64,000 nucleotides of DNA from a virus, in the IMG/VR virus record IMGVR_UViG_3300045988_177331, one strand, 5' to 3'. Positions 8,452 to 64,000 of this stretch are shown here, piece by piece. A program made the position numbers and the translations under genes. The stretch's first letter is position 1. Each line of letters starts with the position of its first letter. The notes beneath the pieces are model-generated. The model did no database searches. It was not told the DNA's origin and worked only from the letters and a program-made list of their open reading frames with translations.

Positions 8452-8557
8452 ATGTTCCCAATCTAGAAAGTTATTTATCCTAACCTTAAAGAGAACTAGT
8501 AAATAAAAACCTAAATTCTGGAACCCAAGGTAAACCCCCAATATATTATATTAAATA

Positions 8558-8589
8558 TTTGCATAATTAAATATTGCATTATATATTTG
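8558..8589 (+). promoter_or_regulatory. Bacteroidota-type promoter, early promoter family copy
   Basis: TTTG (8558-8561), 20 nt, TATATTTG (8582-8589), inside the 92-bp perfect repeat. Confidence 0.75.
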
Positions 8590-8618
8590 CATTAAATAAT
8601 AATTAAAATAAAAAGGAT

Positions 8619-9029: not shown

Positions 9030-9034
9030 CTAAT

Positions 9035-9298
9035 ATGCAATTCAGTAGCTTTATAACCAATAAAATCATTAAAAAACTTATTGAATGGGACCCAGAATTA
9101 TGGTGGGTAGATATATTACATAATTCTAACTTTAACTTTTTCAATGATTTACAAAATCTGTTAAACTCATATAATAATCATATAGACATTATATTCTATC
9201 CCAATGATGAACAAATATATTTCATTGAACATGGAACAGAAAATCCTTGTCATACTTTTAGGGTAGATGATGTAACCTTTTATATAATAATTAAATAA
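9035..9298 (+). CDS. hypothetical protein
   Basis: 87 aa in a tightly packed + strand series. Confidence 0.5.
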   Translation: MQFSSFITNKIIKKLIEWDPELWWVDILHNSNFNFFNDLQNLLNSYNNHIDIIFYPNDEQIYFIEHGTENPCHTFRVDDVTFYIIIK

Positions 9299-9305
9299 CA
9301 CTAAT

Positions 9306-9668
9306 ATGATAAAGAGATTAGTTAACAAACTAGACCCAAGTGAATTATTATCAGAATATACATATAATGCACTTATTTACCTATGTGATTCTGGAAAAGA
9401 ATTTGCTAATTGTTTGAATAATATCCAAGAACATAATTTTAGAAAGGAAGCTATAGATTCCCAAATACACAATATGTTCAAACAGGTTCATTTAGAAAAC
9501 CAAATACATGATGTAGAATTTGGTGCTTTTAAGATAAATGGAGAACTATTACCATCTATAAAATTCAAATTAATAGAAGACCCAATACATGATTGGTTTC
9601 TAATTGGTGCAGAAGACCAAATAATATTATTAGCAAATAATCCATTATATGAAACTGGACAAAACTAA
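9306..9668 (+). CDS. hypothetical protein
   Basis: 120 aa. Confidence 0.55.
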   Translation: MIKRLVNKLDPSELLSEYTYNALIYLCDSGKEFANCLNNIQEHNFRKEAIDSQIHNMFKQVHLENQIHDVEFGAFKINGELLPSIKFKLIEDPIHDWFLIGAEDQIILLANNPLYETGQN

Positions 9669-9673
9669 ATATC

Positions 9674-10015
9674 ATGAAACTATCCAAGAAAATACAAAAA
9701 CTCTTTAATGATACTTTCAAAGAAAAGGATTATTACACTTTTCTAGAATCATTATCTACCTTTGATAATAGGTATCATACTATAATAATAAGAATGGATA
9801 TGATATCCTTAACTGAACTGATACAGAAAGTAAGGTTACTATCTTTCCTTATATTGTCATCTATATTCAAATATAAAAATATAGCTATTAGACATTTTGA
9901 AGAATCAGAGAATGGGTTCTTAATAATAAGGTCTTATCAAGATGATAAGTATCAAATGAATATAACCCTATTCAAAGATTCTGGAATCATGCAAATAAAC
10001 ATATTAGAAATATGA
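9674..10015 (+). CDS. hypothetical protein
   Basis: 113 aa, ATGA overlap with the next gene. Confidence 0.55.
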   Translation: MKLSKKIQKLFNDTFKEKDYYTFLESLSTFDNRYHTIIIRMDMISLTELIQKVRLLSFLILSSIFKYKNIAIRHFEESENGFLIIRSYQDDKYQMNITLFKDSGIMQINILEI

Positions 10016-10266
10016 AACTGTTAGCTCATCTCATATATCTATTAAATGAACAGGGGGTAGGTAATACATTTTACCTATCTCCTATCATTAAAAAAATCCT
10101 GGATAATCACTATGAACAGGAAAGAAAAGCTAAGTTATCAACAATGAAGGTATATATCAGAAAGTTTACAAATAATGGATACCTTAAAAAAGAACCAGGA
10201 CATTATATCCTATTAAAACCAATTCCAACAGATTTAACTACTACAATTTTAAGGACCTGGAAATAA
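10012..10266 (+). CDS. hypothetical protein
   Basis: 84 aa. Confidence 0.5.
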   Translation: MKLLAHLIYLLNEQGVGNTFYLSPIIKKILDNHYEQERKAKLSTMKVYIRKFTNNGYLKKEPGHYILLKPIPTDLTTTILRTWK

Positions 10267-18909: not shown

Positions 18910-19920
18910 ATGGGTAAATTAAGAGTACTTGGAGTATGTGGAGCTCAAGGAGCTTTATTATTCCCTTTTAAAAAGTATTTAATCAGTAATATTGAACCAA
19001 GAGCAGTATTTCATACAAAAAATGAAGAACAATGGAAATTAAATTTTGGTGAAATACCTTTCAAAAGAGACCTTGAATCATTTAAAGGCCAAGTAGATAT
19101 TATAATTGGTTCCCCTTCTTGTGGTCATTCTAGTGTTTTTAGTTATTCAAGGAAGAAAACCCTTGGTAAACCAAAAGAAGATAAAACTTTGAATCTATTT
19201 TTAACCTCTTTGAGCATGTTTAAACCAAAAATATTCCTAATGGAAAACCTCCCAAAACTTTTTGATTTAATTCCAAGAGAGGAATGGGAAGCAAAATTGC
19301 AAAATTATCACCTAATTGTCCATTGCCATTCAGTATTTGATTTTGGTAATTCACAAAAATCACGAAAAAGATTAATCCTAATTGGTATTAGAAAGGATTC
19401 TAATATAAAAGTATCAAACTTTGAAAATATTTTTCCAGTATCAACTCCAATGTTAGTATCAGAAATTGAAAAACTGATAAGAAAGGACATTAATTTCAAA
19501 GAAAATGATGATAAAAAATTAGCCATGTACCATTATTCTGATAAATCAAAGAAAACCCTAACAGTAAAGGAAGTAAAAAATCTTTGGTTGAGTGAATTTA
19601 AAAAAGAATATAAATGGCCAATGAAAAATACCAAAATGAAAACTCTTCCAGGAGTGTATAGAAATAGAAAAAATAGTTATCCATTAACTGTAAGACCATC
19701 AAATAGGCAATTTAATCCTGATGGGGATATCATGGGCCTAGAAGAATATAGGATTATTATGGGATTCCCAAAAAGGTTCAAGGTATATATGGATACTGAA
19801 AATTTAAATTATTGGCTCAATAAAGGAAGAAATACATTAACAAAAGGCTCAGTTTATGAAGTTGGGGTATGGTTTAAAAAATGCCTGAAAAAACAATTCA
19901 GGAATATGGAAACCCCCTAA
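18910..19920 (+). CDS. DNA (cytosine-5)-methyltransferase-like protein
   Basis: The C5-MTase motifs occur in order: I-like VLGVCGAQGALLF; IV-like GSPSCGHSS (Cys retained, PCQ changed to SCG); VI ENLP; VIII QKSRKRLILIG; IX-like EEYRIIMGFPKRF; X-like TKGSVYEVG. Confidence 0.7.
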   Translation: MGKLRVLGVCGAQGALLFPFKKYLISNIEPRAVFHTKNEEQWKLNFGEIPFKRDLESFKGQVDIIIGSPSCGHSSVFSYSRKKTLGKPKEDKTLNLFLTSLSMFKPKIFLMENLPKLFDLIPREEWEAKLQNYHLIVHCHSVFDFGNSQKSRKRLILIGIRKDSNIKVSNFENIFPVSTPMLVSEIEKLIRKDINFKENDDKKLAMYHYSDKSKKTLTVKEVKNLWLSEFKKEYKWPMKNTKMKTLPGVYRNRKNSYPLTVRPSNRQFNPDGDIMGLEEYRIIMGFPKRFKVYMDTENLNYWLNKGRNTLTKGSVYEVGVWFKKCLKKQFRNMETP

Positions 19921-20816: not shown

Positions 20817-23327
20817 ATGGCAAGGATATTAAAAGAAGATAAAAGCTTAAACCAGGAACAGCTAAGAATTTTATCTAGAGTATCAAAAGATGTATTTTTA
20901 TTCTCTACATTTGTTTGGGTAGTTAACCCAGTACTGGGTATGGTAAAATTTAATTTATACCCATACCAAAAATCAGTTCTTTATCAATTCCTAAAACATA
21001 GGTTCAATATAATCCTAAAATTCAGACAAGCTGGAATTACAGAATTGATTGCTATGTACTGTTTATGGTTAGCTATGTATCACCCAAACAAAAAAATAAA
21101 CATCATATCAATCAAGGATACTATAGCAAAGAAGGTACTTAAGAAAATTAAGTTCATGTATAAGAATTTACCTTGGTACCTTCAAACACCAATCATAAAT
21201 GGTAGGGTGGGGGAATTTGGTAGTACAACTACCATGGAATTCTCAAATGGTTCAATTATAGAATCAATTCCTACTTCTGAACAAGCTGGTCGTTCAGAAT
21301 CTCTATCTTTACTTGTTATAGATGAAGCTGCTGCAGTAAGATGGGCTAACCAAATTTGGGCAGCAGCTTTCCCTACCCTTTCTACTGGTGGTTCAGCAAT
21401 CATTAATAGCTGTGTAACCGGTGATACTGAAATAGTTACTAAGAACGGGCTGCTTAGGATAGATACAGTTTGTCCTAAAGAGTTTGGAGTAGCAGATATC
21501 TCTGCTCTTAATTTAGAGGTATTAACTCACAACCTACAGTGGAAAAAGGTTAAAGCTTCAGTTAACAAGGGTAAACTACCTACCTGGGAAATAAAAACCA
21601 CTAAAGGTACAATACTCAAATGTACTCCTGCTCATAAGCTTCTTACTACTTATGGTTGGAAACCTGTTAAGGAGATAGTAGAAAAGGATCTGAACGTCAT
21701 TGAATATGACTTAGGCTTAGATTCTTTAAGAAAACTGCCAGTTACTAAACCCCCTAAGAAGGAAGAGTTAAAACAAATCAAAGGTTATCCCAACTATTAC
21801 ATAAGTAATCTAGGAAAGGTTTACATCAAGAAAGGTGATCAACTGATCATTAAAGAAGGTAGACCTAATAAACAGGGTTATTTACGTATAAAGCTATGGA
21901 ATCACAACAAAAATAAGAACTTCTCTATTCATAGGCTGGTAGTAGAACACTTTATAGGTAAAATACCAAACGGTTATGTAGTTGATCACCTCAATGGTAA
22001 TAAAAGTAATAACTATGTAACTAACCTAGAAATAGTTTCTGTAGCCGAGAATACCAGAAGAGCTTCTGTTTCTAACTACTCTATGTCTATTGGCTCTAGG
22101 ATCCTTAAAGAAGGAACTAGAATACCTCTAGAAGTAGTTGGAATAGTTAAGGAAATATATCCAAAAGTTAAACATAAGAAATACAGTGGTTCTAATGGTA
22201 ATGGTTATCAGAAAGCTATAGTTGATGAAGTAAGGAAAAGAACTGGTTTTGAACTTGATACTAAGCAAATTTACAAAATTATAGCTGGTACCAGGAATCA
22301 AGGTTTAACCTTATCTAAGGTAGAAGTTCTTAGGAAGTTTGAGGCTGAAATTTTTGATATTTCAGTTGAGGATGACCAATCTTATTTCGTAAACCCTAGT
22401 CTCCCATCACATAACACCCCTTTGGGAGTTGGTGGATTTTATCATTCAAGTTGGGTAGATGCTATATCTGGTGGTAATCCAATGAATCCAATCAGATTAT
22501 ATTGGCAAATGCACCCAGATAGAGATGATAAATGGTACCAAGAAATGGCATCTGCACTTGGACCAAGAAGAACTGCCCAAGAAATAGATGGTGACTTTTT
22601 ATCTTCAGGTAATACAGTATTTGATATGTCTGATATCAAAGGTATTGAAGAAATGTTATCTGAATATCCTCCAATATTAACAAAAATGGGTGGTCAATAT
22701 AGAGAATTCAATGAAGTAGACCCAGATAAGGAATATTTCATTGGTGCAGACTGTTCAACTGGTAGAGCAACTGACTACTCTTCTTTCACGTGTATGGATA
22801 AATTTGGGGAAGAACAGGTTATATACAAAGGAAGGTTACCTCTAGATAGATATGCAAAGTTACTTGGTGATACTGGAATGAAATTTAATAATGCACTTCT
22901 AGCACCAGAAACAAATGATATAGGGGCAGCTGTTACTGCAATGCTTCAAGCTGAAGGTTATCCAAATCTTTATTACTATACTAAAATTCTTAAAAAGAAG
23001 GGTAAAAGTAGACCAGAAGAAGAAAAAATTCCTGGTTGGTTAACAACCACTAAAAATAGAACAGTTATAATAGAGGGTCTGGAAGAGGATATTAGAAAAG
23101 AAAATATAATCATAAAGGACCCATTCTTTATACAAGAAGCCTATACCTTTATATATGATGCAACAGGAAGACCAGTTGCAAGAGGTAAACATAGAACCTC
23201 ATCTAGTTCAGCTTCTGATATAGATATGGATGACCAAACTTATTCAGATGATGATATATTTGGTAAAGCTATAACCAACCATATAAGGAAGTCAAATCAA
23301 TACAATGGATATGTATTACCCCAATAA
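20817..23327 (+). CDS. terL: terminase large subunit, interrupted by an intein
   Basis: Deviant Walker A KFRQAGIT, Walker B LSLLVIDEAA, coupling motif split as …GGSAIINS / TPLGVGGFYH, nuclease-type IGADCSTGRATDYSSF. Sits upstream of the portal. Confidence 0.9.
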   Translation: MARILKEDKSLNQEQLRILSRVSKDVFLFSTFVWVVNPVLGMVKFNLYPYQKSVLYQFLKHRFNIILKFRQAGITELIAMYCLWLAMYHPNKKINIISIKDTIAKKVLKKIKFMYKNLPWYLQTPIINGRVGEFGSTTTMEFSNGSIIESIPTSEQAGRSESLSLLVIDEAAAVRWANQIWAAAFPTLSTGGSAIINSCVTGDTEIVTKNGLLRIDTVCPKEFGVADISALNLEVLTHNLQWKKVKASVNKGKLPTWEIKTTKGTILKCTPAHKLLTTYGWKPVKEIVEKDLNVIEYDLGLDSLRKLPVTKPPKKEELKQIKGYPNYYISNLGKVYIKKGDQLIIKEGRPNKQGYLRIKLWNHNKNKNFSIHRLVVEHFIGKIPNGYVVDHLNGNKSNNYVTNLEIVSVAENTRRASVSNYSMSIGSRILKEGTRIPLEVVGIVKEIYPKVKHKKYSGSNGNGYQKAIVDEVRKRTGFELDTKQIYKIIAGTRNQGLTLSKVEVLRKFEAEIFDISVEDDQSYFVNPSLPSHNTPLGVGGFYHSSWVDAISGGNPMNPIRLYWQMHPDRDDKWYQEMASALGPRRTAQEIDGDFLSSGNTVFDMSDIKGIEEMLSEYPPILTKMGGQYREFNEVDPDKEYFIGADCSTGRATDYSSFTCMDKFGEEQVIYKGRLPLDRYAKLLGDTGMKFNNALLAPETNDIGAAVTAMLQAEGYPNLYYYTKILKKKGKSRPEEEKIPGWLTTTKNRTVIIEGLEEDIRKENIIIKDPFFIQEAYTFIYDATGRPVARGKHRTSSSSASDIDMDDQTYSDDDIFGKAITNHIRKSNQYNGYVLPQ
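21411..22415 (+). mobile_element. intein (335 aa) carrying an HNH homing-endonuclease module, in frame inside terL
   Basis: Begins CVTGDTEIVT (block A). TxxH block LKCTPAHKLLT. NUMOD4-like YPNYYISNLGKVY plus HNH-type HRLVVEHF…VDHLNGNKSNNYVTNLE. Ends …VNPSLPSHN followed by Thr+1. Confidence 0.85.
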
Positions 23328-47241: not shown

Positions 47242-48985
47242 TAATAATTGGTTAAATCCTTATCAAAGGTCTTTTAATGATATTAAAGCTAAATTAATAT
47301 CCGAATTAAGATTACAAATCCCAGAAATAACTGATTATAGTGAAGGGAATATATTTGTAATCATAATATCCATTTTTGCAGCTATTGCAGAAGTAATTCA
47401 TTATTATATTGATAATATGGCAAGAGAAGCATTTCTTCCAACTGCTAGAAGATATTCTTCTTTATATAAACATGCCAAACTAGTAGATTATCATATTAAA
47501 TCCGCAATTCCAGCTACAGTAGATGTTGTTCTATATAAGAATGATGATACTCCAATTGGTCAGGATATAACAATTCCATTAAATACTGAATTTACATCTT
47601 CAGATGGTAAAACCTGGATATCCACAAAAACTGTTATTTGGTATAAAGACTCCTATTATGTAACTGTACCATTAGTACAACAAAAATCAGTTGGGGTACC
47701 AGATAGAATCCAATTAGGAAATATATTATCACCAGATTCCATAATATATATAACCGATATACCCTCAGACCAAAAATATGTAGAAGGTTCAATGAATCTG
47801 TATATCAATGATGAACCCTGGATTTTGGTAGATACCTTTGCTTATTCTTCATCAAGGGATAAAGTATATAAGATAGAGGTAGATGAACAACTTAGACCAT
47901 ATATAAAATTTGGTGATGGTCAATTTGGTATGAAACCAGAATATAATGCAACCATAGAAGCTTCATATTCATTAACCTATGGTTCAGCTGGTAATATAGC
48001 TACCAATAATTTTACTACTGTACCACAAGATATTCAAGTTATAGACAATAAGATTACAATTAATAATGTAATCCCAGCTACTGGTGGTTCTGACTATGAA
48101 ACTTTTAATATGTTAAAGAATCATATCCCTTTGTCAATAAAAACCCTTGGAGTAGCAATTACTAAAGAAGATTTTGAAGCTATTGCCAAAATGGTTGGTG
48201 GGGTAGATAAAGCTTATGCAAATTATGTTTGCGGAAGATATGTAGAAATTTATATAACCCCAGATGGTGGAGGGGAAGCTTCTAGTGCATTATTAGATTC
48301 TGTTGAAAAAACAATATCCAAAAGTAAAGTAATTACTACTAGCATAGAAGTATTATCTACCCATAAATCCCAAGTATTTTTGGATATAACCATAACTGGG
48401 AAAAAATCCTTTAAATCTAATGATATTTCAAATCAAGTAAAGAAAGCTTTAACTACAGCTTATGATTACAATAATTCAGATATAAACAAACCAGTAAGAT
48501 TATCAGATATATATGCTTTAATTGATAATCAAAGTATGGTTGATTACCTTACCATAAATAAATTATATCAACTACCATATCCAATTCCCCAAAAAAATAC
48601 GAATTTACCATTAAATATTTCATATTTTGTTCAAAACATAAATCCAGTTACTACTGGTGAAGAATATATAGTTATAGTAAATACATTTTTTGCTAATAAA
48701 CATTATGATGTTTTAATACAAAAATACTATGGGGAAGGTTCAGATAATAGAATATTAGGTAAGGGTTCTTATGGGGAGGTGATAAATGTATTAGATTTAG
48801 AAACCCAAACAAAAATAATATTTCAAATCACTATAAATAAACCATCAGAAAATCTGGATTATGGTGAAAATGATAAATATGAATTAACATTATTACCTAT
48901 GAATCAGGATTTATATCCATTATCCTATCAAATTCCAATCATAGAAAATCAAAATATAACCTTATCAATAAATGAAGTCGTTTAA
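47231..48985 (+). CDS. baseplate J-like protein
   Basis: The track start TTG 47201 is replaced by ATG 47231 (MSTSNNW…). 584 aa following gp25-like. IFAAIAEVIHYYIDNMAREAFLPTA is typical of gpJ N-termini. Confidence 0.7.
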   Translation: MSTSNNWLNPYQRSFNDIKAKLISELRLQIPEITDYSEGNIFVIIISIFAAIAEVIHYYIDNMAREAFLPTARRYSSLYKHAKLVDYHIKSAIPATVDVVLYKNDDTPIGQDITIPLNTEFTSSDGKTWISTKTVIWYKDSYYVTVPLVQQKSVGVPDRIQLGNILSPDSIIYITDIPSDQKYVEGSMNLYINDEPWILVDTFAYSSSRDKVYKIEVDEQLRPYIKFGDGQFGMKPEYNATIEASYSLTYGSAGNIATNNFTTVPQDIQVIDNKITINNVIPATGGSDYETFNMLKNHIPLSIKTLGVAITKEDFEAIAKMVGGVDKAYANYVCGRYVEIYITPDGGGEASSALLDSVEKTISKSKVITTSIEVLSTHKSQVFLDITITGKKSFKSNDISNQVKKALTTAYDYNNSDINKPVRLSDIYALIDNQSMVDYLTINKLYQLPYPIPQKNTNLPLNISYFVQNINPVTTGEEYIVIVNTFFANKHYDVLIQKYYGEGSDNRILGKGSYGEVINVLDLETQTKIIFQITINKPSENLDYGENDKYELTLLPMNQDLYPLSYQIPIIENQNITLSINEVV

Positions 48986-49856
48986 GAGTTTTAAACAATG
49001 GGTATTTCCTAATTTATTTCCAGCTTATTATAAGGATTATGATACTTATAAAGATAAGAATGGGAAAGGTATTCTGGAAAGATTCATAGAAGTATGTTCA
49101 AATTATCTAGATACTGATATTATACCAGATATAGATAATTTTATGGATATATTAGATGTGGATGTTACCCCTGATATATTTCTGAATTATTTTTGGGAAT
49201 ATTTTGATTATATACCCTATGCTTATGGGGTATTAGTAAAAGGTGTACCTTTTACTAAAGAAAATGTAGCTAGTTGGTTAAATACTCCAGATGGATTTCC
49301 AAAAGCAGATACTAGAAGTATTTTAAAATATGCAGTATCTTTATATAAAATAAGGTGCACTCAGGATTTTTATACAATACTTGGTAGATTTTATGGAGTA
49401 AGATTTGAATTAGAAGAAATTCTATTCGAGGATGGATATAGTAATAAACCAAGTAATAATCCAGGTATTAACTATAGACTTATAGGCGCTGTATTCGAGG
49501 ATGGATATAGTAATAAACCAAGTAATAATCCAGGTATTAACTATAGACTTATAGGCGCTGTATTCGAGGACGTAGTAAGTACTTATAGTGGAGAAAATGA
49601 ATACTATGGTGATTGGAAAGGATTATATCCATACGGTGATTGTACATCATGTACTACTATAAAAGCCAATATCTATATTCCAAAAGGTATGTATGATGCT
49701 ATTCAGGATAATATAGATAATGTAAAAAATGCTTTTGTCAATTTACTCAATAAATACATACCAGTAAATGTAAAACCATTCACGAAAGATACCATAGAAT
49801 TAATTTCAGAAATACCTACAATTATACCAATAGAAATAGAACCTCAACAAAATTGA
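48972..49856 (+). CDS. tail protein I-like baseplate protein with an internal 23-aa duplication
   Basis: 294 aa after gpJ-like. VFEDGYSNKPSNNPGINYRLIGA occurs twice in tandem. Confidence 0.5.
   Translation: MKSFKSFKQWVFPNLFPAYYKDYDTYKDKNGKGILERFIEVCSNYLDTDIIPDIDNFMDILDVDVTPDIFLNYFWEYFDYIPYAYGVLVKGVPFTKENVASWLNTPDGFPKADTRSILKYAVSLYKIRCTQDFYTILGRFYGVRFELEEILFEDGYSNKPSNNPGINYRLIGAVFEDGYSNKPSNNPGINYRLIGAVFEDVVSTYSGENEYYGDWKGLYPYGDCTSCTTIKANIYIPKGMYDAIQDNIDNVKNAFVNLLNKYIPVNVKPFTKDTIELISEIPTIIPIEIEPQQN
49423..49571 (+). repeat. perfect in-frame 69-bp tandem duplication
   Basis: 49423-49491 equals 49492-49560. The first 10 nt recur at 49561-49570. Confidence 0.9.
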
Positions 49857-49863: not shown

Positions 49864-50496
49864 ATGTTATCCATCCTACTTCAAACTGAAAACCTTAACA
49901 ATTTAACTGAATCAGTTAATAAAGTTACTGATTCCTCTATTAGAATTGCCCAAGCTGCAAATGATTTTGGTGCATTAAGAGTAGCCTTTGGTGTATTTAT
50001 GATTTTTATAATCATAATTGTAATATTGTTTATATGGCAAATATTTGTATTATCTGGCAAATTAAATACCATATATGGAGCAGCTGTCAAAACTACTGAA
50101 TATTTTGAAACTTCTGCAGAAGGGGATATTGGTCCTTCACAAGCTCAAGTAATAGTGAGAAGAAATTTTAATAGTTTAAGTCAAGCAATTAAATATTACA
50201 TTCTTAGAATAAGGCTAGAAAACCATATAGACGATAAAAATAAAATAAAAGTAAAAATAGATAGGTTAGTTAGAAATGAATTTTCAGAACTAACCACATA
50301 TCTATCAAACTTTAAGTGTAATGAAAAGGTTTTAAGTTTTATAGTAGAAGATGATGATATTCAAATGGTTGAAGATTTTATTTTTGAACAGGTATATATA
50401 CCAAAAAATGATTTTACCATATCCAATATGGACCAATCAACCTCTATATTTATAAATGGTCTAAAGCTTTCATATATTAAGAAAATACCACAATGA
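49864..50496 (+). CDS. single-pass membrane protein upstream of the endolysin (holin candidate)
   Basis: 210 aa, one TM helix (VAFGVFMIFIIIIVILFIWQIFVL), ATGA overlap with the amidase gene. Confidence 0.3.
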   Translation: MLSILLQTENLNNLTESVNKVTDSSIRIAQAANDFGALRVAFGVFMIFIIIIVILFIWQIFVLSGKLNTIYGAAVKTTEYFETSAEGDIGPSQAQVIVRRNFNSLSQAIKYYILRIRLENHIDDKNKIKVKIDRLVRNEFSELTTYLSNFKCNEKVLSFIVEDDDIQMVEDFIFEQVYIPKNDFTISNMDQSTSIFINGLKLSYIKKIPQ

Positions 50497-51155: not shown

Positions 51156-51830
51156 TTAGCGTTTAGAAAAATGTTCCTTTGCTTCTTTAATTGTATTCTT
51201 AATATGGGTTCTCATATTGCTTATATAATCAGCTGCTCTTTGTGTTTTTGGTAATTCAAAGTATTCAATTAAATTCAAGGTTGATAATTTACCATGAGCT
51301 TCTTTCATTTTTTCTTTGAGAAACATTGGAGGGTCCAATTCTGTAACAAATATCAGATATTCATCAGGGGTTAATTTTTCTCTCATATATTCATGGAGCA
51401 TATTAGAGAAATTATTTTCTTCTGGTTCATTTTCAATAATATCCTTTTCTTGGTTATCATCTTTATCTTCTTTACTATTATCAAATAATTCCTCAAATGA
51501 AGTTAATTCTTGATTAAATTCTGCTTGTCTAGTATAAGCATTCCTAAGTAATTTGTTCTTAAAAATTTGTAAAGAAGTTATTAATGTAGCTTTTAATCTA
51601 TCTTCGGTATATTTATCCTGATATTTATTATATACATATAAGAATTTATCCCAAAAATAACTTTGAATTATATCTTGACTAACATTGAATCTTCTAGAAT
51701 CAATATTTTTAGATAGCTTTTTAATTAGTGGTTTACAGATTTTATACATTCTTTCAAATTCTTCCCTGTTATAATGGGTAAATTCTTTTATCCTATGAAT
51801 TTCTGAACCATTAGTACCTTGTTTACTCAT
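51156..51830 (-). CDS. putative sigma-factor-like transcription regulator
   Basis: 224 aa. EEFERMYKICKPLIKKLSKNI…VSQDIIQSYFWDKF resembles sigma region 2, and the C-terminus is HTH-like. Driven by an early-family -7 box. Weak assignment. Confidence 0.3.
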   Translation of the reverse strand: MSKQGTNGSEIHRIKEFTHYNREEFERMYKICKPLIKKLSKNIDSRRFNVSQDIIQSYFWDKFLYVYNKYQDKYTEDRLKATLITSLQIFKNKLLRNAYTRQAEFNQELTSFEELFDNSKEDKDDNQEKDIIENEPEENNFSNMLHEYMREKLTPDEYLIFVTELDPPMFLKEKMKEAHGKLSTLNLIEYFELPKTQRAADYISNMRTHIKNTIKEAKEHFSKR

Positions 51831-57116: not shown

Positions 57117-57527
57117 ATGGCAAAGAAACAAAAACAAAAGGAATTAATAAAACTTGAAGATACAGATATATTGAAACCAATTGATATTTCTCAAATAGGT
57201 TCAAATGGGGACCCATGCTTTGGAAAAGAATATAACCTATCAACCAAGGAATGCAAGATGTGTGGGGATTCAGAATTATGCTGCATAAAATTTGCAGAGT
57301 TAATTGGAAAAGATAGAAAACAATTGGAAAAAGAGAATGAATTTAAGGACTTAGAAAATCTAGTAGATTTAAAAGCAGTGTCAAAAACTATTAGATATTT
57401 GAAAAGGAAAGATGAACCCAAAAAAATAATCCTTGATAAGATTCAAGCAAAATATGAATTGAGCAGGGAAGAAGCTAGAACAATTTATAAATCAGTAATA
57501 AACAAACAAAATGGAAAAAAACAATGA
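57117..57527 (+). CDS. hypothetical Cys-containing protein
   Basis: 136 aa. C..K…CKMCGDSELCC cluster. Confidence 0.55.
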   Translation: MAKKQKQKELIKLEDTDILKPIDISQIGSNGDPCFGKEYNLSTKECKMCGDSELCCIKFAELIGKDRKQLEKENEFKDLENLVDLKAVSKTIRYLKRKDEPKKIILDKIQAKYELSREEARTIYKSVINKQNGKKQ

Positions 57528-58035
57528 ATTAATTTTCACAAGGGTAAGAGATGTTCAATTACCCAAAAGAGCAAATCAACATGATGCAGGAATAGACTTC
57601 TTCTGTCCAGTTCTAGATTCTGAATTAATCCAAAGAATCAATGAGATTAACAATAGTAAGAATGTTATAACAACTCCTGATTTTATTTTGGTAGCTCCTG
57701 GTGCAGATATAACAATCCCATCAGGGGTAAAAGTTTGGATAATGAATAAAGAATCTGCTTTAGTTGCAGCAAATAAATCTGGATTAGCAACAAAGTTTAG
57801 TATTCAATTCACTGCTCAAGTAATAGATGCAGATTACACTGGGGAAATTCATATTGGAATAAGGAATCATGGAAAAGACTTCTTTATGATTAAACCTGGT
57901 GCAAAGTTAATACAATTCCTGCATTTACCAATCATATTATCAGATATCATAGAGGTAGGTAATGATGGGTATAATGATATTGTTGATGGGAAATCAGATA
58001 GGGGAGAAGGAGGATTTGGTTCAACTGGATTTTGA
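57511..58035 (+). CDS. dut: trimeric-type dUTPase (dUTP/dCTP pyrophosphatase fold)
   Basis: All five dUTPase motifs are present: AGIDF, IPSGVKV, QVIDADYTGEI, KPGAKLIQFL, RGEGGFGSTG. Confidence 0.85.
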   Translation: MEKNNELIFTRVRDVQLPKRANQHDAGIDFFCPVLDSELIQRINEINNSKNVITTPDFILVAPGADITIPSGVKVWIMNKESALVAANKSGLATKFSIQFTAQVIDADYTGEIHIGIRNHGKDFFMIKPGAKLIQFLHLPIILSDIIEVGNDGYNDIVDGKSDRGEGGFGSTGF

Positions 58036-58111
58036 TTATGGAAAATACAAATATACAACAAGAGTTAAATGATATTTATATCCATGATTGGTATATTAAA
58101 GACTGAGTGAT

Positions 58112-58996
58112 ATGGATTCAAGAGATATAAAAGAAGAACCAAGTATTCCAAAAGATAATAAGTATCTGGAATCAATATATGAAATGCAAAAACAACTACT
58201 AGATAGTTATATAAGCATTGAAGGGTTACCAAAATACCCATTAAATATAAACACAAAAACCAATCAATTAATCCTAAAAGATTTTACTTCAAGGGTAATT
58301 GAGGAACTTGCAGAAGCTTATGAGAGTTTATTATTAGTGGAGGAATTAACAATAACAAAACAAAATTGGTTCACTATATCATCAACTTCAATTAATTCTT
58401 TTGTTGAATGTATGAATCATTTGCAAAATGCAAGTGAAGAAATGGCAGATGCTTTACATTTCTTCATTGAGTTGTTAATTTACACTAATATACAACCAGA
58501 AGATATTAATTCATACATTGAAAGTAAATTACCAAAGAATAAGAGACAAAACTTCTCAAATACACTTGAATATGGGATGGCATTGGGTAAACAATGGTTA
58601 TCAAATATGAATCAAATCCCAGATGTGAAGAGGAAGAATTTGGTAAACTTAATTCATAAGTATGAACAAGTAAAGGTTGATTTTGATATACCAGAATATA
58701 ATATTAAACTTTTACATTGTGGTGAAGACTACAATTATGAACTTTATAATTCATACAAAAGTTATCTTTGGGATATAACCTATGAACTGAATATATCAAG
58801 GAATTTCCTTAAAAATAAACCATGGAAGCAATCTCAAATGATGACCAATGAATCAGCTTATCAAGAGGAGATAGTAAAGTCATTTATATTATTCCTTGGT
58901 ACATTGAATATAATGGGAGTAAATGGAAGTAATCTGTATTATATTTACTTCAAGAAGAATAAGATAAACCAATTCAGAATAAAATCTAAGTATTAA
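58112..58996 (+). CDS. all-alpha NTP pyrophosphohydrolase, dimeric dUTPase/dCTPase-like
   Basis: EELAEAYES (E..E), EEMADALHFFIELL (E..D.lHF), KNKPWKQ (WK) and C-terminal KKNKINQFRIKSKY (K..N..R…Y), in the order typical of dimeric dUTPase/MazG-type enzymes. Confidence 0.6.
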   Translation: MDSRDIKEEPSIPKDNKYLESIYEMQKQLLDSYISIEGLPKYPLNINTKTNQLILKDFTSRVIEELAEAYESLLLVEELTITKQNWFTISSTSINSFVECMNHLQNASEEMADALHFFIELLIYTNIQPEDINSYIESKLPKNKRQNFSNTLEYGMALGKQWLSNMNQIPDVKRKNLVNLIHKYEQVKVDFDIPEYNIKLLHCGEDYNYELYNSYKSYLWDITYELNISRNFLKNKPWKQSQMMTNESAYQEEIVKSFILFLGTLNIMGVNGSNLYYIYFKKNKINQFRIKSKY

Positions 58997-59985
58997 TGAA
59001 AAGTTTTGTATTTAAAACCGGAGATGAAGCTTGGGCAAGTATAAACAAAATGTTTATTGAACAAGATGAAAAATTAGGATTATTTTCTGATGGACAAGGG
59101 GCTTCAATAACTAATTCACTATATACTTATGGGATGTCAGTATTGATAGAAGAAGCCAAATTTGATCCAGAATTTGATTTTGGGAAGATAATGGGTTATA
59201 CTCAATCTAAATGGAGCAGTTTATTAAATAACTATTTGGACCTTGATTCATTGGATAAATTAAAACTACAAATAAGGGAACTTGAAAAAAATAAAGCCAT
59301 AAACAGAAATTATCATATTGGTTTTAATTTTGCAGATTCTCATGGAAATGGTAAAGGTTGCTTAGTTTCTGGGATGTTCTCAAGAATGATAGGTATTGAT
59401 AAACCAAGGCTTACAATAGTAATGAGAGCTTCAGATGTTGTAACAAGGTTACCTTGGGATTTATTATTGGCTATAAGAATGGGAGAATATGTTTTTGGTC
59501 ATACAGAGTTTACCGTAGAATTATTTATCCGTTCAGCTTTTGCAGATGATACTAGTTTAATGCTTTATAATGGGTATGAACCCATAGAACCTATTATTGA
59601 GAAAATAAAAAATGAAGAAAGGAGAAAGAGATTAAAGAAAGCATTAAAAAGAGTAAAGAAAGCATCAGAAAAAGGTGATGACCCAAAATATCAAGCTTAT
59701 ATGAGGGTATATAAGATATTCAGCCCAGAGAAATATGGTAAAGAATTTAAATCACTTTTTGCTAAGGATTGCATTATTGGTAATTGGGATGGAATACCAT
59801 TGCCAGAAGTATGCCCCTCTATACTTGTAAGGAATCAAATAAAGAAGGTATACTTAAAATTTGTGAACAAGTATAACCTAAATATCTTTTCAAGTGTAGA
59901 TACTAAAAAGAAACTGATAAAGTTTAAGGAAAGTGATGGTTCCATAACTGATTCAATTGAAGATTTAGGTGAAGAAGATGAATAA
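58996..59985 (+). CDS. divergent thymidylate-synthase-fold-like protein, paralogue A
   Basis: GKGC-22 aa-RASD-…-PWD-…-GEYVFGH…RSAF follows the TS order Cys / RxxD / specificity residue / GDxHxY region. Clear paralogue of 59969..60730. Confidence 0.35.
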   Translation: MKSFVFKTGDEAWASINKMFIEQDEKLGLFSDGQGASITNSLYTYGMSVLIEEAKFDPEFDFGKIMGYTQSKWSSLLNNYLDLDSLDKLKLQIRELEKNKAINRNYHIGFNFADSHGNGKGCLVSGMFSRMIGIDKPRLTIVMRASDVVTRLPWDLLLAIRMGEYVFGHTEFTVELFIRSAFADDTSLMLYNGYEPIEPIIEKIKNEERRKRLKKALKRVKKASEKGDDPKYQAYMRVYKIFSPEKYGKEFKSLFAKDCIIGNWDGIPLPEVCPSILVRNQIKKVYLKFVNKYNLNIFSSVDTKKKLIKFKESDGSITDSIEDLGEEDE

Positions 59986-60730
59986 CAATATAACCTGGTT
60001 TCCAGACTCTCTTCTAGCTTGGGAATACTTTAATGAAGTATTTTTAAGTGGGGAAGAGGGTCTTCCTTTTGTTTTTCAAAAAAATGCCACTTACTTATAT
60101 GATGTGGTATTTGGTATAATGGACCCAAGATTACCAAGTAATATTGATTTTGGGAAGTTATTTAATTATTCACAAGCAAAATGGAGATTACTAGTATCTA
60201 ATTACCTTGATGAGTTTGTTATAAATAAAACCAAGAGGGAAGTTACTGATTTACATAAAAAGGGCTTAGTATATAATTATTCAATGTCTTTTACTAATAA
60301 CCATGGATGTGGTAAGAAATGCTTATTATCCATAGTTTTTAGTAAAAGATGTAAAGAAAATAATCCCACAATATCAGTTTATTTAAGGGCATCAGAAATA
60401 ACCAAGAGGTTGATATTTGATTTTCTTTTTGTTCAAAGGATAGGGGAATATGTTTATGGTCATAATAACTTTAAAATGGTATTCCATATAAATCAGATGT
60501 TTAATGATAATACAGTATTATTAATGTATCATGCCCATAAGAATATTATAAAGCTTTTAAAGAAAAAAGAGGATAAAAGGAGTATAAAACTATTGGAAGA
60601 TTTAAATACTTTTCTAGAAAAGCCAATAGATAGCATAAAATATAAAATACATAAAAGGGTTGCAAAAGTTTTACAAGAAGACATAAAAAAACCAGTTACA
60701 TTAGTCAAGGATTGCAAATTACCATTCTGA
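59969..60730 (+). CDS. divergent thymidylate-synthase-fold-like protein, paralogue B
   Basis: Shares IDFGKLFNYSQAKW, GCGKKCLLS, LRASEITKRLIFDFLF and IGEYVYGH blocks with 58996..59985. Confidence 0.35.
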   Translation: MKKMNNNITWFPDSLLAWEYFNEVFLSGEEGLPFVFQKNATYLYDVVFGIMDPRLPSNIDFGKLFNYSQAKWRLLVSNYLDEFVINKTKREVTDLHKKGLVYNYSMSFTNNHGCGKKCLLSIVFSKRCKENNPTISVYLRASEITKRLIFDFLFVQRIGEYVYGHNNFKMVFHINQMFNDNTVLLMYHAHKNIIKLLKKKEDKRSIKLLEDLNTFLEKPIDSIKYKIHKRVAKVLQEDIKKPVTLVKDCKLPF

Positions 60731-60780
60731 TAGTATTGAAATCTATTCTTATTAAACCAAACTTATTAAACTAAATAAAT

Positions 60781-61515
60781 ATGAGAATTTATGATGATTG
60801 TTATGAGTTGATGTCAGAGATGGGCAGAAACTTATGGGAAATGGGTTCTATAGTTAAACCCAAAACCTATCAAAATAAAGTTATTGAGGGTGATGAGAGT
60901 TATATAACCAGAGAACTTATTTGTGAACAATATTGTTTAACAAGTTTAAATAATGTAGACAAGTTATTCATATATTCCAATTCAAAGGAATGGGCTGATA
61001 ATGAATTCTTAGAAAGGATTAACAATGAACCATTAAATCCTGGTGGAGCTTGGACATTAAGAAAAGATATATGGGAACAATTTTTGGTAGATGGTAAATT
61101 TGATTATACCTATTCTGAAAGAATGTTTGATTCTTTAAGGTCAGTAATTAGTTTACTGAAAAATGACCCAGATACAAGAAAAGCAGTACTTCCAATTTTT
61201 AATGGGGAATATAACAATGATTGTAAATATTATGATGGTAGTAAACGTATACCATGTTCCATGTATTATGATTTTTTAGTGAGAGAAAATCAAAAAGGTG
61301 AAAAGGTATTAAATATTTGTTACCATCAAAGGAGTTCAGATTTTGTAACCCATTTTGGTAATGATGTTTATCTTTCATGGAAGCTTATGGAATTTGTTGC
61401 AAATAAAATTGGGGTAAAAGCTGGTTATCTATATCATACAATAGATTCTATACATTCTTATAAAAAGGATTGGATTTTATTAAAAACATCTCTAAATGAT
61501 TTAAGAGGATATTAA
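60781..61515 (+). CDS. thymidylate synthase family enzyme, deoxypyrimidylate C5-(hydroxy)methylase type
   Basis: LLKNDPDTRKAVLPIFN (cf. ThyA QLKNDPDSRR…WN), catalytic-type IPCS, HQRSSDFVTHFGNDVY (cf. QRSCDVFLGLPFNIAS), DSIHSY (cf. GDTHLY). Asp sits at the ThyA Asn177-equivalent position. Confidence 0.75.
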   Translation: MRIYDDCYELMSEMGRNLWEMGSIVKPKTYQNKVIEGDESYITRELICEQYCLTSLNNVDKLFIYSNSKEWADNEFLERINNEPLNPGGAWTLRKDIWEQFLVDGKFDYTYSERMFDSLRSVISLLKNDPDTRKAVLPIFNGEYNNDCKYYDGSKRIPCSMYYDFLVRENQKGEKVLNICYHQRSSDFVTHFGNDVYLSWKLMEFVANKIGVKAGYLYHTIDSIHSYKKDWILLKTSLNDLRGY

Positions 61516-61520: not shown

Positions 61521-64000
61521 ATGAAAACCAGGTACCATATAATAAAGAGTTACAGTGAATTAGAAAAGTTAGTAGAAGCATGCCTAAAAACTGGGTATGC
61601 TTCTGTTGACTTTGAAACTAATGCTGAACCTATATACAATGATACATTTAAACCAACCATATTATCAGTAACCTTTCAACCAGGTTCTGGGATATCAATA
61701 CCATTACAACATTTTGAATGTAGTGAATCCCATATAAATAAAACATGGTTGGAATGGTTAACATATTTTGGTAGAAATGTAATTGAGAATCCAAATGTAG
61801 TAAAAATAGCTTGGAATTGGAAATTTGATAATCAGATATTCCAAAGATATAATATATATTCAAGGGGTACTGTAATAGATGGTATGCTTGCTAAATATCT
61901 TTTAAATGAAGAAAGACCAAATGGTTTAAAGGATATGGTAAGAAGATTTTTACCTGAGTTTTCTGATTATGAAAAATATGATTCATTTGATTCAATACCT
62001 TGGTCAAAAAAACCATTAAAAAAGTTATGTGAATATGGTTGTATGGATACAGATTTTACTTTTAGGTTATCCATATTTTTTGAATCATTCTTAATTAAAA
62101 AAGGGTTTTATAATTTATATAGGAATCTTATAATGCCAGCAAGTAAGGTATTACAAAGTGCTGAAAAGAATGGGTTACCATTTGATGTTGAATTGAATGT
62201 TAAACTAAGGGAAAAATATAATAATCTTATAAATGAATACAATACTAAATTAAGGTCAATAAGAACAGTTCAGAGATATCAAAATTATATAATAAAGAAA
62301 AGAAAAGAAGATTATATTGAAACTCTAGAAAGTGAAATAGAAGAATTAAGGGAAGAGGGAAAAGATAGACAAGTAAAAACAAGGGAACAAAAATTATCCA
62401 GAATAATAGCTGGGGAGTATACAACAAAAGCTGAACTAAAATTAATAGAGGAAGTAAACTTTAGTTCACAAAAACAAATGGTGGACCTATTATATAATTC
62501 AAATCATGGGTTCAAATTCCCAGTTATTGCTTATACAGTTGATAAACATAAAAAACCAACAAATAATCCATCAACTGCAGAAGATACTTTAATAAAACTA
62601 AAAGAACATGATAAATCTGGGTTTATAGATACTCTTTTGGATTTAAGGGGAGTACAAACCATAAATTCCACTTTTATTGTTGGACTAGGGGATTTGGTAC
62701 AAAGTGATGGTGGGGTACACCCTACATTTCTTATCCATGGTTGTGTATCAGGTAATACTAAATTGATAGGTAAAGAAAATGATATAAGGATAGAGGATAT
62801 ATGTCCTAAAGAAGTAGGGGTATTAAATGTAGAAGATAAGAATATATGGGTATTATCCCATGAGGGTACTTGGGAACAAGTAACACATACCATAAATAAG
62901 GGCAAACAACCATTATATAAAATCACTACTAAAAATGGTGATATATTAAGGTGTACAAAGGAACATAAACTTTTAACACCAAAGGGGTGGAAGAGGGTAT
63001 CATATATATTTAAGCATAACCTAAACGTGGTAATGTATGATACTTCAAAATTAGATATAACTAAACCAATTGTAGGTAAAAAATATGATGAGATAATATT
63101 TAGGGATATACCAGGTTGGGATGGGTACATAGCTTCATCAGAGGGCAAAATATATTCAGTAAAAATTCCAGGTGGAAGGGGTATGTTAGATTATAATCAC
63201 CCCCATGAATTAGTTCCAAGGGAATGGAAACCTGGGAGGTTAAGAGTGTATCTGAGGAATAACTCTAAAAAGAAGTATTCTTTCTCAGTGTCCCATTTGG
63301 TATGGATGGCTTTTAATAATAAGTTACATATACCAGAAAAGATGGTAATAGACCATATAAATTGTAATACTCTTGATAATAGACCTGAGAATCTACAGTG
63401 TATAACCTATTCAGAAAATATAAAGAGAGCTTATACATGTACTAGAACAGCATTTACTAGTAATGGTATTAATGGTACTAATAAATTTAATACACTGACC
63501 ATTTCTAAAGTACTAGAAGATTATCAGAATGGGTATACTCAAGCAGAAATATGTGAAAGATATAATATATCCCAAAAACAGGTATCAGGTATAGTTAATG
63601 GTCAGAGGAGAAAAGATATATATCTAACAAAATTGGTATCAATGGAATATGAGGGGGAGAAGACCATATATGATTTATCAGTAAATGATAAGCATAGTTA
63701 TATAACTAGGTCGAACTTTATAAACTCCAATACAGTTAGCGGAAGATTGTCAAGTAGAAACCCCAATGGTCAAAATATACCAAAGACCATGGTAAATCCA
63801 GATGTTAAATTGCAATTTATTCCCCCAAAAAATCAATTATTCCTATCTTATGACTATTCACAAGCTGAATTAAGAATATTAGCTCATTTAGCAAATGAGA
63901 GTACAATGTTGGAGTGGTTTAGAACAGGGAAGGATATCCACCTTGCTTCAGCTTGTAAAAAATATCATGAAGATTATGATGAGATAATAAAGATATATCA
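61521..64000 (+). CDS. family A DNA polymerase (3'-5' exonuclease + polymerase), 3' partial, interrupted by an intein
   Basis: Hand translation is open from ATG 61521 to the window end. Exo motifs VDFETN, WNWKFD, YGCMDTD. Polymerase motifs TVSGRLSSRNPNGQNIP and DYSQAELRILAH. Confidence 0.9.
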   Translation, partial: MKTRYHIIKSYSELEKLVEACLKTGYASVDFETNAEPIYNDTFKPTILSVTFQPGSGISIPLQHFECSESHINKTWLEWLTYFGRNVIENPNVVKIAWNWKFDNQIFQRYNIYSRGTVIDGMLAKYLLNEERPNGLKDMVRRFLPEFSDYEKYDSFDSIPWSKKPLKKLCEYGCMDTDFTFRLSIFFESFLIKKGFYNLYRNLIMPASKVLQSAEKNGLPFDVELNVKLREKYNNLINEYNTKLRSIRTVQRYQNYIIKKRKEDYIETLESEIEELREEGKDRQVKTREQKLSRIIAGEYTTKAELKLIEEVNFSSQKQMVDLLYNSNHGFKFPVIAYTVDKHKKPTNNPSTAEDTLIKLKEHDKSGFIDTLLDLRGVQTINSTFIVGLGDLVQSDGGVHPTFLIHGCVSGNTKLIGKENDIRIEDICPKEVGVLNVEDKNIWVLSHEGTWEQVTHTINKGKQPLYKITTKNGDILRCTKEHKLLTPKGWKRVSYIFKHNLNVVMYDTSKLDITKPIVGKKYDEIIFRDIPGWDGYIASSEGKIYSVKIPGGRGMLDYNHPHELVPREWKPGRLRVYLRNNSKKKYSFSVSHLVWMAFNNKLHIPEKMVIDHINCNTLDNRPENLQCITYSENIKRAYTCTRTAFTSNGINGTNKFNTLTISKVLEDYQNGYTQAEICERYNISQKQVSGIVNGQRRKDIYLTKLVSMEYEGEKTIYDLSVNDKHSYITRSNFINSNTVSGRLSSRNPNGQNIPKTMVNPDVKLQFIPPKNQLFLSYDYSQAELRILAHLANESTMLEWFRTGKDIHLASACKKYHEDYDEIIKIY
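62742..63731 (+). mobile_element. intein (330 aa) with an HNH homing-endonuclease module, in frame inside the DNA polymerase gene
   Basis: Begins CVSGNTKLIG after …PTFLIHG. TxxH block LRCTKEHKLLT. IPGWDGYIASSEGKIYS plus SHLVWMAF…IDHINCNTLDNRPENLQ. HTH-like YTQAEICERYNISQKQVSGIV. Ends …FINSN before Thr+1 of TVSGRLSS. Confidence 0.85.

Follow-up and report, generated by a model that had tools for sequence, protein, structure and literature searches.

A phage gene module that joins a cytosine-type thymidylate synthase homologue to an apparently unannotated thymidylate synthase-fold family, and its possible role in supplying C5-modified deoxycytidine nucleotides

Thymidylate synthases (TS) are obligate dimers whose active-site arginines are shared between the subunits, and Asn177 of the Escherichia coli enzyme, ThyA, specifies uracil. 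To our knowledge, the known pathways of pyrimidine modification employ a single TS homologue before replication and carry out further tailoring on the DNA. The closest described systems are that of phage T4, with the dCTPase/dUTPase gp56, the deoxycytidine monophosphate (dCMP) hydroxymethylase gp42 (dCH) and the deoxynucleoside monophosphate (dNMP) kinase gp1; the flavin-dependent 5-hydroxy-dCMP synthases HY126 AfhB (PDB 9iqu/9iqc), RB69 gp48 and DLP3 gp80; and MilA (5b6d, 5jnh), the cytidine monophosphate (CMP) 5-hydroxymethylase of mildiomycin biosynthesis. Among TS homologues, specificity for dCMP is conferred by N177D, methyl products are associated with a hydrophobic residue at position L143 and hydroxymethyl products with Asp or Glu there, the acidic residue admitting water, and D169N is the mark of the flavin-dependent 5-hydroxy-dCMP synthases (PMC13326640). 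TS positions 177 and 147 are those most strongly tied to cytosine-modified viral contigs, N177D being the strongest (PMC8670742). The present analysis concerns a five-gene cluster in the IMG/VR virus record IMGVR_UViG_3300045988_177331, from which a stretch of 64,000 nucleotides (nt), referred to below as the window, was analysed. The cluster encodes two deoxynucleoside triphosphate (dNTP) pyrophosphatases (p1 and p2), a short homologue of TS whose active site is of the cytosine type (p5) and two paralogues (p3 and p4) of what appears, from sequence and predicted fold, to be a previously unannotated TS-fold family, called P34 here.

The window represents about 64 of 77 kb, and the remaining ~14 kb were rebuilt from a near-identical contig via two overlapping loci, L007 and L178. 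It is A+T-rich (26-36% G+C) and belongs to a contractile-tailed gut phage with terminase, portal, major head protein, sheath, tape measure and baseplate genes and an amidase. A replication block starts at 51.9 kb, occupies the rest of the window and comprises a DnaB-like helicase, a primase, a superfamily 2 (SF2) helicase, the five-gene cluster and a family A polymerase. The genes of the cluster, with their lengths in amino acids (aa) and the evidence for each assignment, are the following.

57511..58035, + strand: p1, trimeric dUTPase, 174 aa (PF00692, phrog_135, five motifs)
58112..58996, + strand: p2, all-alpha dimeric-dUTPase/MazG-like nucleoside triphosphate (NTP) pyrophosphatase, 294 aa (PF08761, phrog_12184, phrog_173)
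58996..59985, + strand: p3, long P34 paralogue with a predicted TS-like fold and a C-terminal extension of ~85 aa, 329 aa (AlphaFold2/Foldseek)
59969..60730, + strand: p4, typical P34 member with a GTG start and a predicted TS-like fold, 253 aa (AlphaFold2/Foldseek, hhalign)
60781..61515, + strand: p5, short TS homologue with a cytosine-type active site, 244 aa (PF00303, alignments to ThyA and PDB sequences)

Protein p5 is a member of the TS superfamily, as judged from its match to PF00303 (1e-14; 54.8 bits for a Pfam gathering cut-off of 24.3) and from residues C159, R184 and D187. Its scores against the two NCBIfam ThyA equivalogs reached neither cut-off (46.4 for 174.55 and 39.2 for 327), and its nearest PDB sequences were AfhB (9iqu, 7e-9) followed by MilA (8e-6). 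In the E. coli ThyA sequence used as reference, the landmark residues fell at their textbook numbers. In this comparison p5 R156 corresponded to ThyA L143, C159 to C146, S160 to H147, R184 to R166, D187 to D169, D195 to N177 and H225/Y227 to H207/Y209, and the segment R184-D195 aligned without gaps to R166-N177. HMMER alignments to 9iqu and MilA showed Asp in the column of D195 in both proteins, and placed Arg156 opposite a Glu of 9iqu and an Asp of MilA. The C-terminal tail of ThyA is absent: p5 stops 17 residues past Y227, whereas ThyA runs 55 residues past Y209. Asn194 directly precedes Asp195 and a shift by one residue would put Asn in the specificity column; no alignment made supports such a shift.

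The combination of Arg at L143, Asp169 and Asp177 was common to 89 of the 93 TS-family open reading frames (ORFs) of the loci fetched for comparison, the other four being canonical ThyA; the N177 column held Asp in 89 of 89 p5-type proteins and Asn in four of four canonical enzymes. Around the catalytic Cys, the p5-type family displayed the motif R-[IVAM]-P-C. Read by the published rules, these residues indicate a cytosine-specific enzyme that is not of the flavin-hydroxylase type and, since Asp169 is retained, its reaction is probably of the folate type. The dCMP hydroxymethylase signature is only partly present in p5, with Asp177 but with no acidic residue at 143. Two identities were rejected. 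A plain ThyA assignment for p5 was set aside on account of Asp at N177, the absent tail and the equivalog scores, canonical ThyA being moreover a separate gene in relatives. Likewise, p3, p4 and p5 are not AfhB-type flavin hydroxylases as they are without D169N (RASD, RASE and RSSD, respectively, versus RSQN in 9iqu).

Family P34 was gathered from 1.84 billion representative proteins as 144 clusters at 50% identity (E <= 0.001), and 73 full-length members were aligned, with a mean column identity of 25%. The two members of the window are paralogues (32% identity, E 3e-37), the start of p4 overlapping the end of p3 by 17 nt. Neither p3 nor p4 had a match in Pfam or NCBIfam, and PF00303 was matched by none of the 73 members at E <= 0.1, for which reason P34 was treated as a separate, unannotated family. 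PHROGs placed p3 in a family whose function label is unknown (phrog_13667, 9e-5) and the nearest BFVD entries were uncharacterised proteins; one p3 cluster alone counted 394 member sequences. A PDB sequence search with p3 alone gave nothing relevant, and the best match of the P34 profile to a PDB sequence was 9iqu at E 0.34. A literature search found no paper describing the family or the gene triad presented below.

The relationship became apparent from predicted structures. Confident AlphaFold2 models were obtained for p3 (predicted local distance difference test, pLDDT, 86; predicted template modelling score, pTM, 0.80) and p4 (pLDDT 95.6, pTM 0.92). In Foldseek searches of the PDB with both models, all matches at E <= 0.001, and nearly all of the best 50, were TS-fold proteins. 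For p3 the order was AfhB (4e-6), MilA, T4 dCH and TS, and for p4 it was MilA (2.8e-7), T4 dCH, AfhB (template modelling (TM) score 0.52/0.60) and then TS, so that cytosine-specific enzymes outranked ordinary thymidylate synthases in both lists. Because TM-scores were moderate (0.4-0.6), P34 is best regarded as a divergent branch of the TS fold and not as a close relative of these enzymes. Profile-profile comparison with hhalign was weak as long as a narrow p5 alignment was used (E 0.007, probability 5%) and gained only with a diverse set of p5-type TS (E 3.8e-5, probability 71%). This alignment paired the invariant Cys of P34 with the catalytic Cys of TS, the P34 motif R-[AS]-S-[ED] with R166-S-x-D169 (RASE with RSSD) and the invariant Asp of P34 with the N177 column. 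Across the 73 members, residues C118, R140 and D151 of p4 were invariant and E143 nearly so; their p3 counterparts C122, R144, D147 and D155 were conserved.

Most P34 representatives were nearer p4 than p3, and p3 is therefore probably a lineage-specific duplicate. Fused domains that might hint at the function of P34 were not found, and no P34-TS fusion occurred among the 144 representative clusters; long members were extended by low-complexity basic tails only. Three of the longest (P0249, P0295 and P0306) had basic C-terminal tails with AT-hook-like GRP motifs (GPGRPPK, AGRP and GKRGRPR), which may be taken as a weak hint, from sequence, at DNA association of some P34 proteins. Additionally, the BFVD entry A0A2I6PI74, an uncharacterised protein from the cultured Pseudomonas phage PMBT14, was structurally nearer p4 (TM 0.69, E 7e-10) than any annotated TS; to judge from the models, PMBT14 may add to the cultured phages with a P34-like protein.

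Protein p1 matched the Pfam dUTPase family PF00692 above its cut-off (9e-12; 45.3 bits for 22) and phrog_135 (3e-27). Its score against NCBIfam TIGR00576 lay below the equivalog cut-off (8e-22; 77.5 bits for 102.55), and p1 is therefore considered a divergent dUTPase. The five dUTPase motifs can be read in its translation at residues 25-30 (DAGIDF), 88-93 (NKSGLA), 104-113 (VIDADYTGEI), 131-136 (AKLIQF) and 164-173 (RGEGGFGSTG). Protein p2 scored 31.2 bits with PF08761 (dUTPase_2; cut-off 22.9), the best stretch covering residues 224-294 only, and also matched phrog_12184 (nucleotide pyrophosphohydrolase, 8e-21) and phrog_173 (2e-8, residues 15-294). Among GenBank phages, full-length relatives of p2 were found in carriers of the module only; elsewhere, similarity to dUTPase/MazG-like genes was confined to the C-terminal KNKPWKQ region. 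Both are ordinary members of their families. Since the genome already possesses p1, p2 would not simply be a second dUTPase; this redundancy and its co-occurrence with Asp177 TS homologues make it a candidate dCTPase. An earlier note, made from the sequence alone, had described five consecutive + strand genes coding for a trimeric dUTPase with all five motifs, an all-alpha dUTPase/MazG-like enzyme, two divergent TS-like paralogues and a TS-family enzyme, with Asp at the cytosine-specifying position of the last three. The ORFs were recovered at the same coordinates and each of these assignments was upheld: those of p1 and p2 by the matches just given, the folds of p3 and p4 (whose not being TS-like would have counted against the note) by prediction and profile comparison, and the Asp column by the ungapped ThyA alignment, HMMER, hhalign and the 73-member alignment. 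The note had also named Asn in the specificity column of p5 as an observation that would speak against it, and this column is Asp195 in the alignments made.

For the analysis of distribution, the 73-sequence alignment was too diverse, and a subset of 17 sequences yielded a workable conserved P34 peptide pattern. This pattern was confirmed in 558 IMG/VR stretches, and a few more were found in bins of metagenome-assembled genomes (MAGs). Assignment of a host through genome contigs was not successful: six of six matches were phage contigs, four of them of 62-83 kb, binned into unrelated MAG taxa. ORFs were called in 96 cassette-bearing loci and classed by hidden Markov models made from our own alignments. 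The order dUTPase, NTP pyrophosphatase, P34, P34, TS was observed in 75 of the 96 loci as well as in the window, and a p1-type gene opened the cassette in 82 of them and in the window. Nine loci of more distant relatives (L003, L021, L031-L033 and L087-L090, of which L021 and L087 start just upstream of the P34 gene) had a single P34 gene directly upstream of the TS gene and often overlapping it. In four loci the cassette included a canonical ThyA with Asn177, Leu or Val at 143 and the full C-terminal tail (L016, 3668-4639; L025, 6768-7745; L027, 7011-7979; L028, 7020-7979). This gene adjoined the p3-type gene in L016 and L025, which therefore have four TS-fold genes in a row, and took its place in L027 and L028. 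As these relatives carry a canonical ThyA besides the p5-type gene, the latter is not their thymidylate (dTMP) synthase.

The remotest P34 members were found in different replication modules, with a RepB-type primase, a PolA fused to uracil-DNA glycosylase (UDG), a PDDEXK nuclease and AAA_24, where the gene order was dUTPase_2, P34, short TS, PolA. The TS genes of these lineages all showed the signature R-x-P-C-[ST], RSSD, ...ND. A zinc-dependent dCMP deaminase was encoded besides the module in the distant lineages L173 to L175. In L173 this gene (7326-7727) lies within the module, which has two P34 paralogues of its own (5596-6390 and 8001-8801), apparently the result of an independent duplication. 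In L171, a 366-aa ORF (8937-10037, + strand) between P34 and TS carries a CxxxCxxC motif (GCFRKCEFC); the genes after it match Pfam Tad3 (PF25185) and DUF488. Such a motif is typical of radical S-adenosylmethionine (SAM) enzymes, and the arrangement is a hint at the ability of the module to take up additional tailoring enzymes. Searches by tblastn with remote P34 members detected the triad in cultured phages of Clostridium perfringens (CPD4, CP3, Clo-PEP-1, CPAS-15, P21, A2, C2, D1, E1 and H1) and Brevundimonas. In phage CPD4 the triad corresponds to CPD4_73, CPD4_74 and CPD4_75, followed by DNA polymerase I, and Brevundimonas phages Strzyga and Polewnik have genes for, in this order, NTP pyrophosphohydrolase, a hypothetical protein, 'thymidylate synthase' and DNA polymerase. 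The triad of all-alpha NTP pyrophosphatase, P34 and p5-type TS persists in remote lineages and cultured phages; it is therefore the core unit, to which a trimeric dUTPase and another P34 copy have been added. In the loci examined P34 was always accompanied by a p5-type TS, and in every lineage examined the module was directly upstream of PolA.

Two further genes are relevant to the fate of a nucleotide produced by the cluster, the first adjoining it and the second located, in a near-identical contig, ~6 kb past the end of the window.

61521..64000, running off the window, + strand: family A DNA polymerase (from its translation; annotated as DNA polymerase 1 in the relative MT121960)
1445-2110 of L178, + strand: thymidylate-kinase-like P-loop protein, 221 aa (phrog_2107, AAA_28)

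The P-loop protein matched phrog_2107 (thymidylate kinase) over its full length (1.7e-8) and AAA_28 (1e-7), and on this basis is a candidate kinase for a modified monophosphate. The ~14 kb beyond the window also encode a gp32-like single-stranded DNA-binding protein, a 5'-3' exonuclease, an Mre11-like phosphoesterase and a PDDEXK nuclease. The polymerase gene is interrupted by an intein of 330 aa with an HNH homing-endonuclease domain (62742-63731, + strand), inserted between FLIHG and TVSGRLSS; Cys is the first residue of the intein and Thr that of the downstream extein. The window and L014 both contain the intein and the near-identical L007 does not, so that it is polymorphic. Outside the window there is also an ORF exceeding 983 aa (L007 13810-16761, continuing into L178). 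The record MT121960 holds an annotated recombinase A gene and, if the long ORF matches it, its length would suggest another intein.

With gene identities, predicted folds, conserved active-site residues and synteny established, the cluster can be viewed as a pre-replicative nucleotide-pool module feeding the adjacent polymerase with a C5-modified deoxycytidine nucleotide, a reading to which we give about an even chance. All substrates and products in the following scheme are those that we infer for the cluster enzymes. Protein p2 would hydrolyse deoxycytidine triphosphate (dCTP) to dCMP, as T4 gp56 does, and p1 would clear dUTP. Protein p5 would hold dCMP via Asp195, and Cys159 together with methylene-tetrahydrofolate would place a one-carbon unit at C5. 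A hydroxymethyl product is favoured over a methyl one, because residue 143 is polar (Arg156) and the C-terminal tail involved in hydride transfer is missing. P34 retains the residue set for a Michael addition of Cys to C6 of a cytosine nucleotide and, to judge from its strict association with p5-type TS, may carry out a further step along the same line of substrates. On this more speculative point, p3 and p4, as homodimers or as a p3/p4 heterodimer, might run a second Cys-C6 addition, for example one in which the hydroxymethyl product gives back the exocyclic C5 methylene, which then captures another nucleophile. The clearest precedent for such chemistry is that of the clade 2 aGPT-Pplases, where a Cys attacks C6 and an exocyclic methylene is formed anew from a derivative hydroxymethylated at C5 (PMC8989533). 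The thymidylate-kinase-like protein and the nucleoside diphosphate kinase of the host would then give the triphosphate, and the adjacent family A polymerase would incorporate it.

The earlier note had compared the cluster to the T4 pair of dCTPase and dCMP hydroxymethylase, and this analogy proved reasonable, being strengthened by the thymidylate-kinase-like gene and by the relatives that carry ThyA. Its suggestion that three TS-fold genes are a sign of extra chemistry gained support as well, since P34 is a distinct conserved family always found with a p5-type TS. Its central proposal, replacement of cytosine by a C5-modified cytosine, stood in part: the gene assignments, the TS fold and the Asp column speak for a C5-modified cytosine, and the observations of the next paragraphs on a DNA methylase, CpG and GATC point against complete replacement. 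Two TS-fold genes of an unannotated family travelling together with p5 in unrelated phages make an undescribed route to modified cytosine likely, if unproven. A stronger version would make P34 a new class of TS-fold enzyme which, with the Arg143/Asp169/Asp177 TS and the NTP pyrophosphatase, forms a widespread pathway, acting wholly on nucleotides and ahead of replication, to an undescribed hypermodified cytosine or a derived thymine analogue, with carriers among abundant human-gut phages and the cultured C. perfringens and Brevundimonas phages; this version is put forward tentatively, as a possibility with the balance against it.

Several observations weigh against a modified cytosine or limit its extent. 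Arg at the L143 position of p5 fits neither of the described product signatures, and the structural similarity of P34 to TS is no more than moderate by TM-score. The literature search, including related GenBank records, PDB codes and cultured phages bearing the module, found nothing on DNA modification. No glycosyltransferase or other DNA-tailoring enzyme was present in the ORFs scanned over the window and the ~14 kb beyond it; a Pfam scan of ten early-region ORFs, two baseplate ORFs (48972-49856 and 49864-50496) and one minus-strand ORF (51156-51830) likewise revealed no kinase, glycosyltransferase or tailoring enzyme. Finally, the phage itself encodes a homologue of the C5 DNA methylases, enzymes that require an unsubstituted C5 in DNA.

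18910..19920, + strand: divergent C5 cytosine DNA methyltransferase homologue, 336 aa (PF00145, 7e-18)

This gene is located just upstream of the terminase genes and displays the motifs PSC, ENL (ENV-like) and QxRxR. Relatives were found in 138 IMG/VR stretches, with identities of 48-100% among the 80 listed, and were also carried by two contigs with the cassette, _171840 and _139049; MT121964, which is more distantly related to the phage, is annotated with a DNA cytosine methyltransferase. Base composition points in the same direction. The observed/expected (O/E) ratio of CpG in the window was 0.17, compared with 1.74 for CC/GG and 0.75 for GC, and such context-specific depletion would be expected of site-specific rather than global C5 modification; it could result from CpG-directed methylation with deamination, from host mimicry or from restriction avoidance. 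The site GATC occurred seven times for 171 expected (O/E 0.04, z = -12.6), at positions 21687, 21837, 21845, 21984, 22100, 33552 and 59164, and ATGCAT (1 for 13 expected) and CTTAAG (1 for 8) were likewise avoided. The large terminase subunit (20817-23327, + strand, 836 aa) has an HNH-endonuclease insertion at about residues 243-491 (phrog_59, 3e-37), which is probably either another intein or an inserted domain. This insertion contains five of the seven GATC sites, suggesting that it arrived recently in a GATC-purged genome. As the avoided sites contain cytosine, the phage is apparently still under restriction pressure, and the purging of such sites would not be expected if every cytosine bore a bulky protective group. 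Together, the methylase and the depletion of CpG and GATC lower confidence in a complete replacement of cytosine; they are compatible with a modification that is small, partial or permissive for host enzymes.

Other explanations of the module were considered. The one that survives best, although we judge it unlikely, is that P34 is a non-catalytic or regulatory partner, as a subunit of a heterodimer or a scaffold in a dNTP complex, and that, as in T4 or XP12, the pathway ends at plain 5-hydroxymethyl- or 5-methyl-dCMP, perhaps replacing cytosine in part only. TS dimers share active-site arginines between subunits, P34 has no clearly conserved counterpart of the ThyA R126/R127 pair, and the two genes adjoin and often overlap, all of which would suit a mixed dimer. 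A pure scaffold, however, has no need of a Cys, an Arg, an acid and an Asp that are invariant or nearly so in a family with such a low mean column identity, and the lack of P34-TS fusions among the representative clusters does not favour a partner role either.

A catalytic role of another kind, which we consider rather improbable, would be the supply of thymidylate: dCTP would be converted to dCMP, p5 would yield 5-methyl-dCMP, and P34 would deaminate it to dTMP by covalent Cys-C6 catalysis. The genome, with 71% A+T (28-30% G+C), makes such a need conceivable. Addition of a thiol that saturates the 5,6 bond of cytosine speeds its deamination, as is the case in C5 methyltransferase chemistry. 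Canonical ThyA fills the slot of p3 in L027 and L028, and the C5 DNA methylase and site avoidance suit a genome of ordinary cytosine. Nevertheless, we know of no TS-fold deaminase, p3 coexists with canonical ThyA in L016 and L025, and L173 to L175 already own a zinc-dependent dCMP deaminase; moreover, a methyl product is disfavoured by the polar side chain at L143 and by the absence of the C-terminal tail.

It is also highly improbable that the modified nucleotide is destined for something other than virion DNA, whether as an anti-defence or host-takeover metabolite or as a means of draining or poisoning the dCTP of the host. Such a use would agree with the ordinary cytosine that the methylase and the avoided sites suggest for phage DNA, and MilA-type TS homologues do supply hydroxymethyl-CMP to an antibiotic and not to DNA. 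The placement of the module right before the replicative polymerase in all lineages examined, the presence of a thymidylate-kinase-like gene and the fact that the phage Asp177 TS homologues of the cited literature all feed DNA argue otherwise. That p5 is an ordinary divergent synthase converting deoxyuridine monophosphate (dUMP) to dTMP, and p3 and p4 decayed duplicates without function, deserves hardly any credence: the PF00303 match, the deposition of the CPD4 and Strzyga homologues as 'thymidylate synthase' and the conceivable one-residue shift between Asn194 and Asp195 are outweighed by equivalog scores far under their cut-offs (46 versus 174 and 39 versus 327), by the strict division between Asp (89/89 p5-type) and Asn (4/4 canonical ThyA) and by P34 active-site residues that are intact across distant phage lineages.

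The preferred reading, a supply of C5-modified deoxycytidine nucleotide to the adjacent polymerase, has implications beyond this phage. That P34 has the full set of covalent-catalysis residues points to a further, undescribed reaction at the nucleotide stage, in a module found in hundreds of gut viral contigs and conserved beside the polymerase gene across unrelated lineages. Phage DNA base modifications govern resistance to restriction enzymes, CRISPR and other nucleases, and affect sequencing and cloning. The presence of the triad in cultured phages (CPD4, CP3 and Clo-PEP-1; Strzyga and Polewnik) makes the question directly testable. Should virion DNA turn out to be canonical, P34 would still represent a new TS-fold activity in nucleotide metabolism.

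Comparison with the known systems shows a mixture of shared and distinct features. As in the T4 pathway of gp56, gp42 and gp1, a pyrophosphatase of the cluster could supply dCMP, a separate nucleotide kinase is available (as a candidate here) and the genes are placed among those of replication. Like gp42, p5 is short, has a catalytic Cys and an Asp in the N177 column and lacks the C-terminal tail of ThyA; unlike gp42, it has Arg and not Asp or Glu at the L143 position. The present system also differs from T4 by one or two extra TS-fold genes (P34), none of which exists in T4, by its C5 DNA methylase and by the lack of a glucosyltransferase in the scanned ORFs. The AfhB group shares Asp at N177 with the TS-fold proteins of the cluster and is similar to p5 in length (~235-245 aa), AfhB being the best PDB sequence match of p5 and among the best structural matches of p3 and p4; unlike the AfhB group, the cluster proteins are without D169N, nor was any gene for arabinose or another sugar nucleotide seen. 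MilA likewise has the cytosine-type Asp at N177, and was the top Foldseek match of p4 and the second PDB sequence match of p5; it differs by its ribonucleotide substrate, its Asp at L143, its length of ~320 aa and its place in an antibiotic pathway, whereas the cluster belongs to a phage replication module. ThyA shares with p5 the fold, the catalytic Cys and the equivalents of R166, D169 and H207/Y209, but p5 has N177 replaced by Asp, L143 by Arg and H147 by Ser, is without the tail and misses the equivalog thresholds. For the P34 hypothesis only, a parallel can be drawn with the clade 2 aGPT-Pplases (PMC8989533), where a second enzyme attacks C6 of a pyrimidine by a Cys, regenerates the methylene and adds a nucleophile; unlike P34, these have a helix-hairpin-helix glycosylase-like fold and act after replication, on 5-hydroxymethyluracil (5-hmU) in DNA. 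Pre-replicative modification of pyrimidines by a TS homologue is thus known, and what is new here is the conserved presence of one or two extra TS-fold enzymes, which could represent new chemistry.

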